Positions 58,078 through 64,000 of a stretch of 64,000 bases of DNA are shown here, one piece after another. The stretch's first letter is position 1, and every line of letters begins with the position of its first letter. The notes under the pieces were generated by a model. The model ran no database searches. It saw only the letters and a program-made list of their open reading frames with translations, and had not been told where the DNA came from. Both the position numbers and the translations under genes were made by a program. This DNA comes from an uncultured Eubacteriales bacterium (lineage in GTDB: Bacteria; Bacillota; Clostridia; Oscillospirales; CAG-272): assembly GCA_934486825.1 (NCBI GenBank), contig CAKSQF010000012.1, positions 14,751 to 78,750 of the forward strand. Reading direction: 5' to 3'.

Positions 58078-58749
58078 ATGGAAACCACCGGGGAACGTAT
58101 AAAGAAACTAAGACTTCAAAGAGGAATGTCGCAAGAAGAACTTGCAAAACTGTTGGGGTACTCGCATAAATCTGCTATAAATAAAATCGAATTAAATATC
58201 AACGGGGTTCCTTCCTCAAAGATAGTAAAGTTGTCCAAAATCTTCGGAGTGTCGATATCATACCTGATGTGTGACGACGATTCCCGTCCCGCCCCCGACG
58301 GGGACGCGATCGACCTGTCAAAATTAAATAACGTGCGCCGCATAAACCCGAGAAGATTCCCGCTACTCGGCAAAATCGCATGCGGTCAGCCGATACTTGC
58401 CGTCGAAGAGCATGACAGCTATGTAACGGCAGACCGCGACATTGACGCCGATTTCTGCGTCATCGCAAAAGGTGATTCAATGAGACAATCCCGCATATGC
58501 GACGGCGATACAGTATTCATAAAACGGATGCAGGCAGTCGGGGACATCAGAAATGTCGCTGCCGCAGGAGTCGTTGCGATCATCATCAACGACGAGGTGA
58601 CCCTCAAACGCGTTTATTACAATAAGGACAACGACACTCTTATTCTCGCCGACGACAACTCAAAACGCCCGCCGATTCTCCTTACCGGCAGTGAAATCGA
58701 CAATCTGAACTGCATAGGCAGGGCGGTCTGTTTTATGAGCTTATTGTAA
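58078..58749 (+). CDS. cI/LexA-like repressor (XRE HTH + S24 peptidase domain)
   Basis: N-terminal HTH (MSQEELAKLLGYSHKSAINKIE). C-terminal S24 motifs AKGDSM and VTLKRV (Ser/Lys dyad). Confidence 0.8.
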   Translation: METTGERIKKLRLQRGMSQEELAKLLGYSHKSAINKIELNINGVPSSKIVKLSKIFGVSISYLMCDDDSRPAPDGDAIDLSKLNNVRRINPRRFPLLGKIACGQPILAVEEHDSYVTADRDIDADFCVIAKGDSMRQSRICDGDTVFIKRMQAVGDIRNVAAAGVVAIIINDEVTLKRVYYNKDNDTLILADDNSKRPPILLTGSEIDNLNCIGRAVCFMSLL

Positions 58750-58785
58750 GTTATCGGCAGAGCACAAACCGTTTTCGCAAAACAT

Positions 58786-58820
58786 TCACCCGCAGTTCAA
58801 ATCCTGCGGGTGAGTTTTTA
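58786..58820 (+). terminator. Terminator after the cI-like gene
   Basis: TCACCCGCAG-TTCAAATC-CTGCGGGTGA followed by GTTTTTA. Confidence 0.75.
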
Positions 58821-58893
58821 TACAAGAAATCACAAAAAGCATGTAATAGAATGATTTTTTTACAAAAATTGTTCATTTTAACCGAATCATGTC

Positions 58894-58922
58894 TTGTATA
58901 ACCGGTTTTTTTATGCTATAAT
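58894..58922 (+). promoter_or_regulatory. Plus-strand promoter upstream of cas9 (cas9 leader)
   Basis: TTGTAT-17 bp-TGcTATAAT (extended -10). The predicted TSS is about 58929, 174 nt before the cas9 ATG. Confidence 0.6.
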
Positions 58923-58945
58923 ATACCTGTGGGAAACAATGGCAA

Positions 58946-59066
58946 CAAAAAGCGGTGCCGTAAGCACCGCTTTTGCGCACACACCTGTGCAGTCGGAGAG
59001 TCCCGACGATCTGAGTTAACTTTTATTTGAACTCAATAGTGCAGATTTACAGGGGACTATAAATCT
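58946..59066 (-). ncRNA. Putative tracrRNA (about 120 nt)
   Basis: Own minus-strand promoter (59073-59101). Internal hairpin GUCGG-GACUCU-CCGAC (58992-59007). Terminal hairpin GCGGUGC-UUACG-GCACCGC followed by U5. The segment GAGUUCAAAUAAAAGUUAA resembles the repeat/anti-repeat-to-nexus junction of known type II-A tracrRNAs. Its location upstream of and antisense to cas9 matches S. pyogenes. The cognate repeat is not in the window, so complementarity is untested. Confidence 0.5.
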
Positions 59067-59072
59067 GTCTGA

Positions 59073-59101
59073 AGTATATCACGAAAAGGACGGCTTGTCA
59101 A
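59073..59101 (-). promoter_or_regulatory. Promoter of the putative tracrRNA
   Basis: Minus strand TTGACA(59101-59096)-17 bp-TATACT(59078-59073). The -35 ends 2 nt before the cas9 ATG. Confidence 0.6.
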
Positions 59102-59102
59102 T

Positions 59103-62100
59103 ATGAAATCCGAAAATTATTATATCGGTCTTGACATCGGCACCGACTCTGTCGGATACGCCGTAACGGACACCTCCCCGCAGTACGGTCTGATGAAATT
59201 CAACGGCGAGCCGATGTGGGGCGTGACTCTCTTTGATACTGCCGACCTTTGCAAAAGCAGACGCGTCCACAGAACCGAGCGGAGAAGAATCGACAGAAGA
59301 CAGCAAAGGATCACCCTCCTTCGTGAGCTTTTTGCCGGACCTATCTCGCAGGTCGATGCCGGATTTTACAATCGCATAACCGAAAGCGCACTGCTCCGCA
59401 CCGATGCGGGTGAGCCGTTCTGCCTTTTCAACGACCCCTCTTATACCGATGCCGATTATCACAAAGAGTACCCGACAATTCACCATCTGATTGTCGAACT
59501 TATGGAAAGCAATTTCCCGCATGATGTCCGACTTGTTTACATCGCCTGTGCATGGCTGATTGCACACCGCGGTCACTTTCTCAGCGACATTTCGATTGAA
59601 AATGTCAACGGAATAAGCAGTATAAAGTCTTTGTACGACAAACTTATAGACTATTTACTTATAGACTATTTAAATGAAGAGACTGACGAAATCCGCATAC
59701 CGCGGACGCCTGATGACGACAAAATCGGAGATTTCGAAGAAATACTAAAGAAAAAGGGAATCAACCGCAAGCTTGAAGGCTTGCAGAATCTCTTAAACGG
59801 CGGCAAAAAGTTCGACAGCAACCCATCCGAAAGCTTTCCGTTCAGTCCGGAAGGAATCATGAAGCTTCTCTGCGGCGGCTCCTATCCGCCTGCCAAGCTG
59901 TTCAAAGAAGGCAAAGAAAAATACGCCGACCTCGGCAATCTCTGTCTTGACACCGACGAAGAGACCTTTGCGGAATCGCTGGCGGCGCTCGGGGACGACG
60001 GCGAGCTTATCCGCCGTCTCAAAGAGATCTTTGACCGGGCAGTTCTTGCCGATCTGCTGAACGGCTGCGAATACATTTCTCCGGCAAAGGTCAAAACATA
60101 CGAACAGCACAGGAAAGACCTTGACTATATCAGGCATTTTGTCTCGGACAATTATCCCAAAGACGTTTACAGGCGGCTTTTCCGCAGATATGAAAAAGAC
60201 AACTATGTGGCTTACAGCGGAAACACAAAAAACTGCCCGAACACCGAAAAATACGAAAAATGCCACAGCAGGGGGGACTTCTGCAAGCATCTGATGAAGG
60301 TACTTGAACTTGACAAGGACGAACAAAAGCGAAGCATGATCGACCCGGAAGTGCTTGAGCGGATAGAAAACGGGACTTTTATGCCGAAGCAGGTGAGCAG
60401 TGAAAACAGCGTAATTCCCTGCCGGCTCTATTACGTCGAACTTCGGAAGATACTCGAAAACGCCTCCGCATATCTTCCGTTTCTGAACGAAAAAGACGCG
60501 GACGGCTATGTCACAAAGGAAAAGATACTGTCGATCATGCGTTTTCGTATTCCCTACTATGTCGGACCGCTGAACAGAAACGGCAGTGAACATGCATGGA
60601 TCGAGCGCAAGGCTGACGGCAGAATTTATCCGTGGAACTTTGACGAAAAGGTCGATACGGCTTCCTCGGAAGAAGCGTTTATAAAACGCATGACAAACAA
60701 ATGCACATATCTCGCCGGCGAGGATGTTCTGCCGAAAAATTCCCTGCTCTGCAAAAGCTTTGAGGTACTGAACGAGATCAACTGTCTGAAAATAAACGGC
60801 GTTCCCATCGGAGTTGCCGAAAAGCAGATGATTTTTGATGACCTTTTCATGAACTATAAAAAGGTCACACCAAAGAAAATCAGCGATTATCTCGTACAGA
60901 ACAACCTTTGCTCAAAAGAGGATGCCGAAACTCTTTCGGGAATCGACACGGAGATAAAATCGTCGCTCACGTCCCGGATTTCCTTCAACAATCTGATCAC
61001 GTCGGGCGTTCTGTCCGAGGCGGATGTCGAAAAAATCATACTGAGAAGGACATACGCGCAGGACAAAAACAGATTCCGGAAATGGCTCGGCAAAAACTAT
61101 CCGGGACTTGGCGAAAAAGACTCGGACTACATCTGCAAACTGTCCTTTAAAGATTTCGGCAGACTTTCCAAGGCTCTTTTAAACGGCATTACCGGGCAGA
61201 AGATCGACAGCAAAACGGGCAAAGTCTGCGGCGACGAAAAAACCGTAATCCGATTCATGTGGGAATCGAATGTAACCCTTTCCGAGCTGCTCCTGTCGGA
61301 CAGATACACCTTTGCGGAGCAGATCAGAAAGCGTAACACCGACTATTATTCGGAGCATCCGAAAACGTTGGACGAGCGTCTTGACGAAATGTACATTTCG
61401 AATGCGGTCAAGCGTCCGATCATACGCACGCTTGACGTGGTAAGCGACATCGTAAAGGCGACGGGACACGCCCCCGAAAAGATATTTATCGAAATGGCGC
61501 GGGGCGGACAGACCGAAAAGAAACGGACGACTCCGAGAAAACAGCAGCTTCTCGATCTGTACAAGAAGATAGAGGACGAAGAACTGTCCGAATTAGTCAA
61601 AGAGCTTAAAATAAAGCTCGAAGGCGAAAGCGAAAACCGTCTGCAAAGCGACAAACTCTTTCTCTTTTACACACAGCTCGGCAGATGCATATATTCGGGC
61701 GAGGAGATTAACCTCCGGTCACTGATGGACGAAAACAGCATCTACGACATAGATCACATTTATCCGCAGTCGAAGGTCAAGGATGACAGCATCCTTAACA
61801 ACAGAGTGCTGTCCCTCAAAACAATTAACGGAACAGAAAAAGGGGATAAATACCCGATTGATGCGGCAATCCGATCGAAAATGCACGGTTTCTGGAAGAA
61901 ACTGAAGGAAAACGGGCTGATCGGCGAGGAAAAGTACAGGCGTCTGACGCGCAGCACCGGATTTTCGGACGAGGAAAAGTGGGATTTTATAAACCGTCAG
62001 CTTGTCGAAACAAGACAATCGACAAAAGCGGTCGCCTCACTGCTTTCCGAAAAATATCCCGACTCCGAAATAGTCTGCGTCAAAGCGGGACTTGTCTCCG

Positions 62101-63245
62101 ATTTCAGACAAGAATTCAACTTGCCGAAATCAAGAGCGCTGAACGATCTGCATCACGCAAAGGACGCTTATCTGAATATCGTGTGCGGAAATGTATATCA
62201 CGAACACTTTACAAAGCAGTGGTTTCTGAAACACGTTGATGATTACACGGTCAAGACAAAGGCACTGTTCGGAGACGATATCACCGTCGGAAGCAAAACG
62301 ATATGGGGAGGCGGGCGGTCGATCGAAGCAGTCAAAAAAAACATGCGGAAAAACAACTGCCACATGACCTTCTATCCGATAAAGAAGAAGCACGGACAAA
62401 ACGGCGGATTTTTTGACCAGAATCCGCTGCCTGCCGATAAAAATTTATTCCCGAGGAAGAAGGGGCTGTCACCCGAAAAATACGGTGGCTACAACAGTCT
62501 CACGACCGCATTTTCGGTCATCGTGCGCTACACCCTCGGAAAGAAGGATGTGACCGAATTTGTTCCCGTTACCCTGTTGTGTGCCGAAAAATTCATGTCC
62601 GACCGCGATTATGCGCTGAACGGATACATAAAAGAGTATTTTGACAAAAAATTTGAAGAAAAAGACGTAAAAGAGACAGACATAAGACTGCTGTTCAACG
62701 GACGTCCGATAAAGATCGGCACCGAACTTGTCCTTGACGGACTCAGCGTGCTTTTCGGAGGTCAGGGTAAATCGGACGGTATAATCGGGGTAAAAGTATT
62801 CAGTCCTCTTATCCTGCCGGAAAATGATGCCGCATACGTGAAAGCGGTCGAATCTTTTGTTCGCAAGACAGACAAGAACCACGACATCGGCTACTCGCAG
62901 GAGGAAACGGTGTCCGCCGAGAAAAACCTCGGGCTCTTCGATCTGCTTGTCGAAAAATACGGCAAAAAGCCGTATTCCATGCGACCCGAGAGCGGACTCA
63001 AAAAGCTGACAGACGGCAGAGACACGTTTGCCCGACTCGACGTGAAGGAGCAGTGCAGAACGCTTATGAACATCCTTTCGCATTTCAACCGAACTGCTTT
63101 GGCTGATACCAATCTCAAACTCGGGCGCAACTGTCGGCTCAATGCAAATATAAACAATTGGAAATACTCGGACGTCAGAATAATTGACCGCTCCCCCTCC
63201 GGACTTTGGAAGCGGGAATCGGTCAATCTCAAAAAGCTGTCATGA
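59103..63245 (+). CDS. cas9: Cas9 (type II effector, II-A-like architecture)
   Basis: 1380 aa. RuvC-I YYIGLDIGTDSVGYAV, RuvC-II IFIEMAR, HNH YDIDHIYPQSKVKDDSILNNRVL, RuvC-III NDLHHAKDAYLN, and the arginine-rich bridge helix RRRIDRRQQR. Followed directly by cas1. Confidence 0.95.
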   Translation: MKSENYYIGLDIGTDSVGYAVTDTSPQYGLMKFNGEPMWGVTLFDTADLCKSRRVHRTERRRIDRRQQRITLLRELFAGPISQVDAGFYNRITESALLRTDAGEPFCLFNDPSYTDADYHKEYPTIHHLIVELMESNFPHDVRLVYIACAWLIAHRGHFLSDISIENVNGISSIKSLYDKLIDYLLIDYLNEETDEIRIPRTPDDDKIGDFEEILKKKGINRKLEGLQNLLNGGKKFDSNPSESFPFSPEGIMKLLCGGSYPPAKLFKEGKEKYADLGNLCLDTDEETFAESLAALGDDGELIRRLKEIFDRAVLADLLNGCEYISPAKVKTYEQHRKDLDYIRHFVSDNYPKDVYRRLFRRYEKDNYVAYSGNTKNCPNTEKYEKCHSRGDFCKHLMKVLELDKDEQKRSMIDPEVLERIENGTFMPKQVSSENSVIPCRLYYVELRKILENASAYLPFLNEKDADGYVTKEKILSIMRFRIPYYVGPLNRNGSEHAWIERKADGRIYPWNFDEKVDTASSEEAFIKRMTNKCTYLAGEDVLPKNSLLCKSFEVLNEINCLKINGVPIGVAEKQMIFDDLFMNYKKVTPKKISDYLVQNNLCSKEDAETLSGIDTEIKSSLTSRISFNNLITSGVLSEADVEKIILRRTYAQDKNRFRKWLGKNYPGLGEKDSDYICKLSFKDFGRLSKALLNGITGQKIDSKTGKVCGDEKTVIRFMWESNVTLSELLLSDRYTFAEQIRKRNTDYYSEHPKTLDERLDEMYISNAVKRPIIRTLDVVSDIVKATGHAPEKIFIEMARGGQTEKKRTTPRKQQLLDLYKKIEDEELSELVKELKIKLEGESENRLQSDKLFLFYTQLGRCIYSGEEINLRSLMDENSIYDIDHIYPQSKVKDDSILNNRVLSLKTINGTEKGDKYPIDAAIRSKMHGFWKKLKENGLIGEEKYRRLTRSTGFSDEEKWDFINRQLVETRQSTKAVASLLSEKYPDSEIVCVKAGLVSDFRQEFNLPKSRALNDLHHAKDAYLNIVCGNVYHEHFTKQWFLKHVDDYTVKTKALFGDDITVGSKTIWGGGRSIEAVKKNMRKNNCHMTFYPIKKKHGQNGGFFDQNPLPADKNLFPRKKGLSPEKYGGYNSLTTAFSVIVRYTLGKKDVTEFVPVTLLCAEKFMSDRDYALNGYIKEYFDKKFEEKDVKETDIRLLFNGRPIKIGTELVLDGLSVLFGGQGKSDGIIGVKVFSPLILPENDAAYVKAVESFVRKTDKNHDIGYSQEETVSAEKNLGLFDLLVEKYGKKPYSMRPESGLKKLTDGRDTFARLDVKEQCRTLMNILSHFNRTALADTNLKLGRNCRLNANINNWKYSDVRIIDRSPSGLWKRESVNLKKLS

Positions 63246-64000
63246 GCTGGCGCACAGTCATAATATCCACGCGGTGCAAGCTCGACCTCAAAATGGGCTA
63301 CATGGTGGTGCGCGGTGAGGAGACCAGACGGATATATCTCGACGAGATCGCAATGCTGATGATAGAAAATCCCGCGGTCTCGCTCACCGGCTGTCTGCTG
63401 GAAGCACTTATCGAAAAAAAGGTAAGGGTGATATTCTGCAACGGAAAGCGCTCACCCATGGCAGAGCTTGCGCCCTACTACGGTTCGTACGACTGCTCGC
63501 GTAAGATCAGAGTTCAGCAGGAATGGAACGACGACATCAGGGGAGCGGTCTGGACAGACATAATCTCCGAGAAGATCAAAAATCAATGTCTCTTCCTTTC
63601 GGAGCTCGGAAAAGAGCGTGAGACCTCGCTTCTGAAAACGTACATCGGACAGGTGGAGCTTTACGACGCGACAAACCGGGAGGGTCATGCGGCAAAAGTA
63701 TACTTCAACGCCCTGTTCGGCACCGATTTCACCAGAACCGAGGACAATGTCACAAACGCCGCACTGAATTACGGCTACACGATCATCCTTTCTGCTTTCA
63801 ACAGAGAGATCACCTCCTGCGGATATCTTACCCAGCTCGGACTATGTCACTGCAACCTGTTCAACTACTACAATCTGAGCTGTGATCTGATGGAGCCTTT
63901 CCGTACACTTGTTGACAGAAAGGTATTTGACGGCAAATATACCGTCTTTTCAGCCGCCGAGAAGCACGCGCTCTGGGGTATTCTGAACGAAACCGTCTAT
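63242..64000 (+). CDS. cas1: Cas1 (5' partial, runs off the window)
   Basis: ATGA overlap with the cas9 stop, then 253 open codons to the window edge. MSWRTVIISTRCKLDLKMGYMVVRG ... NAALNYGYTIILSAFNREI is typical of type II Cas1. Absent from the ORF track because no stop is reached. Confidence 0.85.
   Translation, partial: MSWRTVIISTRCKLDLKMGYMVVRGEETRRIYLDEIAMLMIENPAVSLTGCLLEALIEKKVRVIFCNGKRSPMAELAPYYGSYDCSRKIRVQQEWNDDIRGAVWTDIISEKIKNQCLFLSELGKERETSLLKTYIGQVELYDATNREGHAAKVYFNALFGTDFTRTEDNVTNAALNYGYTIILSAFNREITSCGYLTQLGLCHCNLFNYYNLSCDLMEPFRTLVDRKVFDGKYTVFSAAEKHALWGILNETVY

Follow-up and report, generated by a model that had tools for sequence, protein, structure and literature searches.

This study was concerned with the head of a CRISPR-Cas9 locus from an uncultured Eubacteriales bacterium, in which the gene for a trans-activating CRISPR RNA (tracrRNA) lies upstream of cas9 on the opposite strand. 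The DNA analyzed, referred to here as the window, is a stretch of 64,000 nucleotides (nt) that represents positions 14751-78750 of contig C12 in an assembly of 2.07 Mb and 48 contigs. The tracrRNA gene occupies positions 58947-59066 on the minus strand of the window and is predicted to give a primary transcript of about 120 nt. Its promoter reaches to the cas9 start codon, and the cas9 mRNA probably begins beyond its far end, so that one transcription unit is nested head-on within the other. The cas9 gene (59103-63245, plus strand, with its ATG at 59103) encodes a protein of 1380 amino acids that matches TIGR01865 with 840 bits. The cas1 gene (63206-64000, plus strand; TIGR03639) follows and extends past the end of the window. 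After cas1, the genes cas2 (TIGR01573) and csn2 (TIGR01866) and an array of four repeats are found on C12:78750-80000 and C16:1-209. The family matches of Cas9, Cas1, Cas2 and Csn2 in the profile search all exceeded the curated cut-offs. The array starts 82 nt past csn2, at C12:79927 (the equivalent of window position 65177), and comprises, in total, four copies of the repeat GTTTGAGAGTAGTGTAAATTTATAGGGGACTTAAAC, all identical, with three spacers. Contig C12 ends in 49 nt (C12:79952-80000) that also open contig C16 (C16:1-49), which indicates that the assembly breaks inside the CRISPR array and that the two contigs join. Because cas9, cas1, cas2 and csn2 were all above cut-off and the array lies downstream of them, the system was assigned to type II-A. 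The locus is a complete type II-A CRISPR-Cas9 locus, with tracrRNA, cas9, cas1, cas2, csn2 and array. The genome also encodes an RNase III (252.7 bits).

The first-pass annotation of this DNA, which was made from its letters alone, had predicted the tracrRNA and had named a series of promoter, hairpin and terminator motifs, all of which were found where it had placed them on both strands. It had also expected the repeat of a then unseen array to resemble the complement of the 5' part of the RNA. The repeat of the array agrees with this expectation, as it pairs with the anti-repeat at 59025-59066 (minus strand) with a duplex energy of -37.1 kcal/mol. The duplex contains a lower stem of 7 bp (UUCAAAU with GUUUGAG), a bulge of 3 nt (GAG) in the tracrRNA strand and, above it, approximately 24 bp of upper stem with a few G-U pairs, and this geometry is canonical for type II-A. 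The whole genome was then scanned for anti-repeats on both strands by an ungapped comparison that tolerated G-U pairs, with RNAduplex applied to the top candidates. Positions 59025-59066 ranked first after the complement of the array itself, and the next candidates, at -29 and -25 kcal/mol, lie in unrelated places. Thus, the region does not lack complementarity to the repeat and the genome scan found no better anti-repeat elsewhere. No tracrRNA family in Rfam matched, even at an E-value of up to 10, and the region gave chance-level matches only. Since the Rfam models cover other lineages, the tracrRNA described here is placed in the same functional class but in another sequence family.

Conservation was analyzed in related loci. 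Of 201 genomes from the same family, 19 contain homologues of this Cas9 with 43-59% identity, and the 13 family loci that were extracted all have the same order of elements upstream of cas9. A search of the species collection with a Cas9 alignment identified at least 576 relatives, and the best 80 of these were analyzed. They are metagenome-assembled genomes of gut and rumen origin that carry labels such as Oscillospiraceae, Acutalibacteraceae, Ruminococcaceae and Lachnospiraceae. A covariance model (R1) built from 14 RNAs scores 98 bits on the tracrRNA gene of the window (E 6.8e-15), and the 5' end of that gene is intergenic, 36 nt upstream of cas9. R1 also matches 77 of the 80 related Cas9 loci, always on the strand opposite to cas9 and, except in L088, at a distance of about 36 nt between the 5' end and the start of cas9. 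Among the loci without a match, L106 and L112 lack the 5' end of cas9 and the DNA upstream of it, and L113 has only 117 nt of upstream sequence. The layout exception, L088, carries its tracrRNA homologue (210-320) and a TTGACA about 1.3 kb upstream of the cas9 match; this locus has either an insertion or a rearranged head.

The alignments identified two hairpins in the tail of the RNA that are conserved in structure. Hairpin 1 (GUCGG-loop-CCGAC; 58992-59007, minus strand) is paired in 99.5% of the alignment cells, and all five of its pairs have changed on both sides. Hairpin 2 (GCACA-loop-UGUGC; 58977-58990, minus strand) is paired in 97.9% of the cells, with four of five pairs changed on both sides. 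Taken jointly in the alignment of 78 sequences, the hairpins are 98.7% paired and nine of their ten pairs are compensatory. The controls support this result: none of 500 shuffles was as good, and sliding the partners against each other lowered the pairing to 20-58%. In addition, RNAalifold recovered the two hairpins and nothing else from an alignment of 14 sequences, and the fold of the tracrRNA tail has a z-score of -4.2. Two pairs of hairpin 1 are G-U in 22 and 6 sequences, respectively, and these form pairs on the tracrRNA strand only. A nexus-like mini-hairpin with a stem of 2 bp (AGUUAACU; 59014-59021, minus strand) is suggested by inspection of the alignment rather than by a formal count. 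Its AG..CU stem becomes AA..UU in L027 and L030, a small compensatory change that is consistent with a nexus module.

The anti-repeats follow the repeats of their own loci. Over 74 loci, pairing between repeat and anti-repeat of the same locus averaged -37.4 kcal/mol, compared with -24.5 kcal/mol for cross-locus pairs, and compensatory differences can be seen directly, for example GGGAUAGAAAA with UUUCUAUCCC. Because the anti-repeat is unique in the genome, the hairpins covary and pairing with the own repeat is preferred, the tracrRNA is considered to be functional and co-evolving. The lack of a match in Rfam could also be taken to point to a decayed orphan repeat, or a relic, from which no tracrRNA is expressed. 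This can hardly be the case, since a near-consensus promoter and a terminator are kept in about 90 loci, compensatory changes are seen in the tail hairpins, the anti-repeat co-varies with the repeat of its own locus, and the genome contains no other anti-repeat though the locus is otherwise complete. The prediction of a tracrRNA was therefore sound in that its anti-repeat fits the real repeat, is unique in the genome and belongs to an RNA conserved with covariation. The minus-strand RNA is almost certainly a genuine type II-A tracrRNA and an ordinary member of its class.

The promoter of the tracrRNA gene is interlocked with the start of cas9. The consensus scan identified it as TTGACA-17-TGaTATACT at 59073-59101 on the minus strand (-35 box 59101-59096, -10 box 59078-59073), with 11 of 12 consensus positions plus the TG extension. 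Read on the plus strand, the DNA at 59086-59105 contains the Shine-Dalgarno (SD) sequence AAGGA of cas9 (59086-59090), then TGTCAA, which is the complement of the -35 box, a single nucleotide and the ATG at 59103. By this reading, the same 30 nt double as the predicted tracrRNA promoter, as DNA on the minus strand, and as the predicted ribosome-binding region of cas9, as RNA on the plus strand. The window taken singly contains four promoter-like sites where 2.7 are expected, which is not above chance. The promoter motifs are regarded as real because they are conserved over about 90 loci, and not from the window count. TGTCAA is exact in 83 of 85 loci and is separated from the cas9 start by 1 nt in 77 of the 85, so that the statement of the first-pass annotation that the -35 box adjoins the cas9 start codon applies to the clade as a whole. 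The spacer of the tracrRNA promoter is 17 nt in 73 of these 85 loci, the TG extension is present in 60 and an SD-like GGAGG lies within the spacer in 72. The consensus of the junction in the clade is GGAGG-nn-TGTCAA-n-ATG. Its spacing is rigid because the 17-nt spacer and a distance of about 9 nt between SD and ATG leave no tolerance for insertions or deletions.

The probable promoter of the cas operon lies beyond the tracrRNA gene's 3' end, at 58894-58922 on the plus strand (TTGTAT-17-TGcTATAAT), with a predicted transcription start near 58929. It was recognized by reading the sequence and is conserved in L038, a locus with an 88%-identical Cas9 match; this locus retains the tracrRNA gene and the junction as well. 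The related loci were scanned for plus-strand promoters with a score of at least 10.5 in the 200 nt of DNA that lie beyond the tracrRNA 3' end. Such promoters were found in 47 of 87 loci, mostly 0-80 nt away, compared with 7 of 87 on the control strand. At the same score, none of the 87 loci has a plus-strand promoter within the tracrRNA gene or its promoter. Because internal promoters are missing and promoters beyond the terminator are enriched, it is inferred that the cas9 leader is antisense to the tracrRNA. The cas9 mRNA is likely to start near 58929 and to carry a leader of about 175 nt that would be the exact complement of the whole tracrRNA. The antisense leader proposed in the first-pass annotation thus continues to be the most probable arrangement, on the basis of the promoters beyond the terminator and of their conservation in L038. 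The two predicted promoters, 58894-58922 (plus) and 59101-59073 (minus), face each other and drive overlapping units, and this layout recurs in silico in the same 47 of 87 loci. In 68 of 80 loci, the higher score of the two belongs to the tracrRNA promoter.

The possibility was also considered that a weak plus-strand promoter overlapping the -10 region of the tracrRNA promoter drives cas9, in a divergent layout as in Streptococcus pyogenes, and that there is no long antisense leader. In some loci the AT-rich -10 region does resemble a -10 hexamer whichever strand is read (L044 has GGGACA..TATAAT, with a score of 10), and 40 of the 87 loci have no strong upstream promoter at the chosen score. 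However, the threshold is reached inside the gene in no locus, and the best internal candidate in the window scores only 7. A start at such a site would leave at most 10 nt ahead of the SD sequence, and promoters beyond the terminator are enriched about sevenfold over the control strand. An internal promoter is thus quite improbable.

The intrinsic terminator of the tracrRNA spans 58947-58974. Its hairpin (58952-58970) is GCGGTGC-5 nt-GCACCGC, fully Watson-Crick, with folding energies of -13.0 kcal/mol on the minus strand and -12.1 kcal/mol on the plus strand. Next to the hairpin come five U on the minus strand (58951-58947), and on the plus strand only four T (58971-58974) before GCGC. This terminator was missed on both strands by the consensus terminator scan, probably as a result of a blind spot for symmetric terminators: the flanking A5 and the T-run pair with each other and count as stem, and too few T are left.

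The first-pass annotation had regarded this hairpin as a bidirectional terminator shared by both transcripts, which could cut the cas9 leader short at about 45 nt and thereby set the level of Cas9. Both in the window and in its 88% relative the hairpin is of the Watson-Crick type and is flanked by A5 and T4, which suits such a role, and there was a weak trend for strong cas promoters to occur with a plus-strand T-run (17 of 42 vs 9 of 38), which was not significant (Spearman p=0.08). However, the run on the plus strand is just four U before GCGC, and the related loci do not show the same symmetry. The terminators were analyzed locus by locus, since their structure is conserved and their sequence is not, so that no alignment was possible. 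The search demanded a minus-strand run of at least four T, and a minus-strand count of 82 of 82 is therefore circular, while the counts of longer minus-strand runs and of plus-strand runs are informative. On the minus strand, a run of at least five T is present in 70 of 82 loci. On the plus strand, a run of at least four is present in only 27 of 82 loci and a run of at least five in 8, and in 37 loci the run is of two T or fewer. The hairpins also favor the tracrRNA strand, with a mean folding energy of -9.6 kcal/mol on the minus strand and -8.0 kcal/mol on the plus strand. A difference of at least 2 kcal/mol in favor of the tracrRNA strand was seen in 20 loci, and one in favor of the plus strand in only 2 (Wilcoxon p=1.5e-9). 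This asymmetry arises because G-U pairs turn into A-C mismatches on the other strand, and the asymmetries of stability and of G-U pairs indicate that selection acts on the tracrRNA strand. In addition, no cas9 promoter was found downstream of the hairpin in any of the 87 loci. Efficient termination would silence the operon, and with no other promoter for cas9, termination on the plus strand must be leaky. For these reasons, it is unlikely that Cas9 levels are set by attenuation, and a shared bidirectional terminator is not part of the conserved design. The plus-strand hairpin may be, at most, a weak attenuator that is particular to this lineage and outside that design.

The following course of events is proposed for the nested arrangement. 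The tracrRNA would pair with the precursor CRISPR RNA (pre-crRNA) repeats of the adjacent array for processing by RNase III and would then be loaded into Cas9. Transcription of the cas9 mRNA would run head-on through the tracrRNA gene and its promoter. Polymerases from the cas promoter would meet an occupied, strong tracrRNA promoter on the cas9 start, about 140-170 bp away. Those cas transcripts that escape would be perfectly complementary, over 120 nt, to an abundant tracrRNA, and RNase III would cleave the leader duplex. Interference and cleavage together could then hold Cas9 low relative to the tracrRNA. Interference is established between convergent promoters such as pR and pL of coliphage 186, where the stronger is expected to suppress the weaker, and that system resembles the locus studied here in its facing promoters and overlapping transcripts, which are here predicted from sequence. 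The package of a tracrRNA, a nested layout and at least some damping of cas output is given a probability of roughly 65%.

Several observations weigh against this reading. First, the -35 box of the cas promoter (TTGTAT, 58894-58899) matches only three of six consensus positions and the promoter was not listed by the consensus scan, its perfect extended -10 box notwithstanding. Secondly, the 40 of 87 loci that have no strong upstream plus-strand promoter at the chosen score count here as well. Third, the cas promoter and the tracrRNA terminator are separated by anything from 0 to about 170 nt, and since this distance is variable, nothing but the nesting itself appears to be constrained. Also, the rigid gap of 1 nt can be explained by two tightly toleranced signals within 30 nt and does not require regulatory coupling. 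Lastly, the interference and the cleavage of the leader by RNase III are deduced purely from the predicted layout.

The same observations bear on the possibility that the nesting is real but neutral, a compact inherited arrangement in which the levels of Cas9 and tracrRNA are independent and follow from promoter strength. The unconstrained distance between cas promoter and terminator (0-170 nt) is what this explanation predicts, and so are the plus-strand U-tract, which is not conserved, and the G-U pairs of the hairpins and the stability of the terminators, which show selection on the tracrRNA strand only. The interlock would not require a regulatory role either, as promoter, SD sequence and start codon share 30 nt and cannot drift, and the distance of about 9 nt between SD and ATG bars insertions and deletions. 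However, when two promoters face each other over about 140-170 nt and the downstream one is strong, interference is expected on physical grounds, and a perfect RNA duplex of 120 bp is a substrate for RNase III, which the genome encodes, so that some effect is hard to avoid. Neutral nesting is accordingly a tenable, minority explanation, and some damping of cas output by the nested layout is preferred to it. That the nesting has been selected for a regulatory role is a further step, and a doubtful one. A stronger and more tentative form of this idea, which is rated slightly lower again, is a conserved dosage circuit in the type II-A clade of gut Clostridia, with the cas9 leader as an obligatory full-length decoy of the tracrRNA. 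In such a circuit, tracrRNA that is free of Cas9 and of pre-crRNA repeats would trigger cleavage of the cas operon mRNA by RNase III, and the tracrRNA promoter would block incoming polymerases. The synthesis of Cas9 would thereby be tuned to the supply of tracrRNA and crRNA and would not depend on a natural single guide RNA (sgRNA) of the kind formed by tracr-L, the long tracrRNA isoform of S. pyogenes.

These results are of interest for several reasons. First, a mechanism for the restraint of Cas9 is known only for the S. pyogenes group, where the long tracrRNA isoform acts on a divergent cas promoter, and that solution is not available to the clade described here. If the arrangement described here is regulatory, it would be a second and purely cis-encoded route to the stoichiometry of Cas9 and tracrRNA. 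Secondly, the locus belongs to a large, mostly uncultured clade of at least 576 relatives, which includes relatives of the genome-editing enzyme FrCas9. Third, the junction consensus GGAGG-nn-TGTCAA-n-ATG and the covariance model R1 allow precise annotation of tracrRNAs in this clade. Lastly, cloning requires caution, as a cut at the cas9 ATG loses the tracrRNA promoter.

The borders of the CRISPR-Cas cassette were also recorded. On the left, homology with the 88% relative L038 begins at a hairpin at 58784-58815, the bidirectional terminator of an upstream cI/LexA-like gene, which the terminator scan reported on both strands; farther upstream the two sequences are unrelated. The genome contains exactly two copies of this hairpin, CACCCGCAG..loop..CTGCGGGTGAGTTTTTAT, both preceded by a similar 5' flank of about 12 nt, at 58775-58826 of the window and at 224-285 of L002 (contig C16). 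The second copy lies just after the array, and the two copies bracket the whole cassette of promoter, tracrRNA, cas genes and array. This sequence arrangement suggests that the cassette may be a hairpin-bounded unit that moved between contexts. A search of 20 genomes from the genus revealed no empty cassette site, and the one close match (G209) also carries the array. A protospacer was identified at 58183-58212, inside the open reading frame at 58078-58749, by comparison with L118 (contig C125 of G209); its 3' flank is TCCTCAAAGA. The protospacer indicates that the neighboring cI/cro-like region is, or once was, part of a mobile element that was targeted by a sister strain.

At the other end of the cassette, the leader of the array closes with an incomplete copy of the first part of the repeat, immediately ahead of repeat 1, GAATTTGA-GTTTGAGAG (L001 6845-7001; C12:79845-80000). 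Many related loci have such partial repeat copies at the leader end as well, either GTTTGAGGTTTGAGAG or ATTTGAGATTTGAGGTTTGAGAG. These copies shifted the register of the automatic repeat calls in about 12 loci.

Among Cas9 proteins of solved structure, the closest is FrCas9 of Faecalibaculum rodentium (9JWK; 677 bits over the full length; PMC12926199). Small RNA sequencing has placed the FrCas9 tracrRNA upstream of cas9, where it is transcribed opposite to the cas genes (PMC8931148). The two systems share the gene order tracrRNA, cas9, cas1, cas2, csn2 and array, the start of the repeat (GTTTGAG) and the lower stem of the anti-repeat, GAGUUCAAAU. They differ in the tail of the tracrRNA, which in FrCas9 is unrelated and has neither the GUCGG..CCGAC nor the GCACAG..UGUGC hairpin, and the promoter architecture of FrCas9 is not described in PMC8931148.

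The first-pass annotation had drawn an analogy with S. pyogenes, which holds only in part. The system of strain SF370 (Deltcheva 2011; Workman 2021, as described in PMC12302355 and PMC11417352) is also of type II-A, its tracrRNA also lies upstream of cas9 on the opposite strand, the order of anti-repeat, nexus and hairpins is the same, and the tracrRNA and cas promoters are physically entangled in both. However, both tracrRNA promoters of S. pyogenes are divergent from the cas promoter (Pcas), with overlapping -35 boxes (PMC12302355), and the transcripts do not overlap, whereas the promoters predicted here are convergent and the cas9 leader would span the whole tracrRNA. In S. pyogenes, tracr-L is a natural sgRNA that targets and represses Pcas (PMC11417352), and there is no sign of such a long isoform in the window. 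An analogue of tracr-L was considered and ruled out in silico, as there is neither room nor a promoter for it. There is no room because the -35 box of the tracrRNA promoter abuts the cas9 ATG, so that a 5' extension would be cas9 coding sequence, and the consensus scan identified no further minus-strand promoter between 59102 and 60000. A crRNA-like guide that would arise from the leader and act on the locus was considered too, but the leader would match all of the tracrRNA rather than its anti-repeat only. Autoregulation by tracr-L also involves a Pcas that diverges from the tracrRNA promoters and carries a target with a protospacer-adjacent motif. The promoters here are convergent, and as no guide-like extension is present, such a target was not searched for.

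Two further reports describe antisense transcription at tracrRNA genes. In gut metatranscriptomes, tracrRNAs were found directly upstream of cas9 with a stranded signal, some of them antisense to the predicted cas9 mRNA, and the taxa include Subdoligranulum and Lachnospiraceae (bioRxiv 10.1101/2020.03.31.018887). By their description, these tracrRNAs resemble the one presented here in that they come from gut Clostridia and lie directly upstream of cas9. Together with the FrCas9 data, they lend indirect support to the predicted antisense leader. Unlike the present analysis, that paper describes neither an interlock of promoter, SD sequence and start codon nor the position of the cas promoter. 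In Streptococcus agalactiae, a transcript of about 100 nt runs antisense to the tracrRNA and overlaps its 3' end (PMC4448216), whereas the antisense partner predicted here is the leader of the cas9 mRNA and spans the entire tracrRNA. The interlock and the nested arrangement are not described in the literature that was searched. The head-on nesting of the two units, together with the nucleotides shared by the tracrRNA promoter and the cas9 ribosome-binding site, is a new form of the known head arrangement of tracrRNA and cas9.

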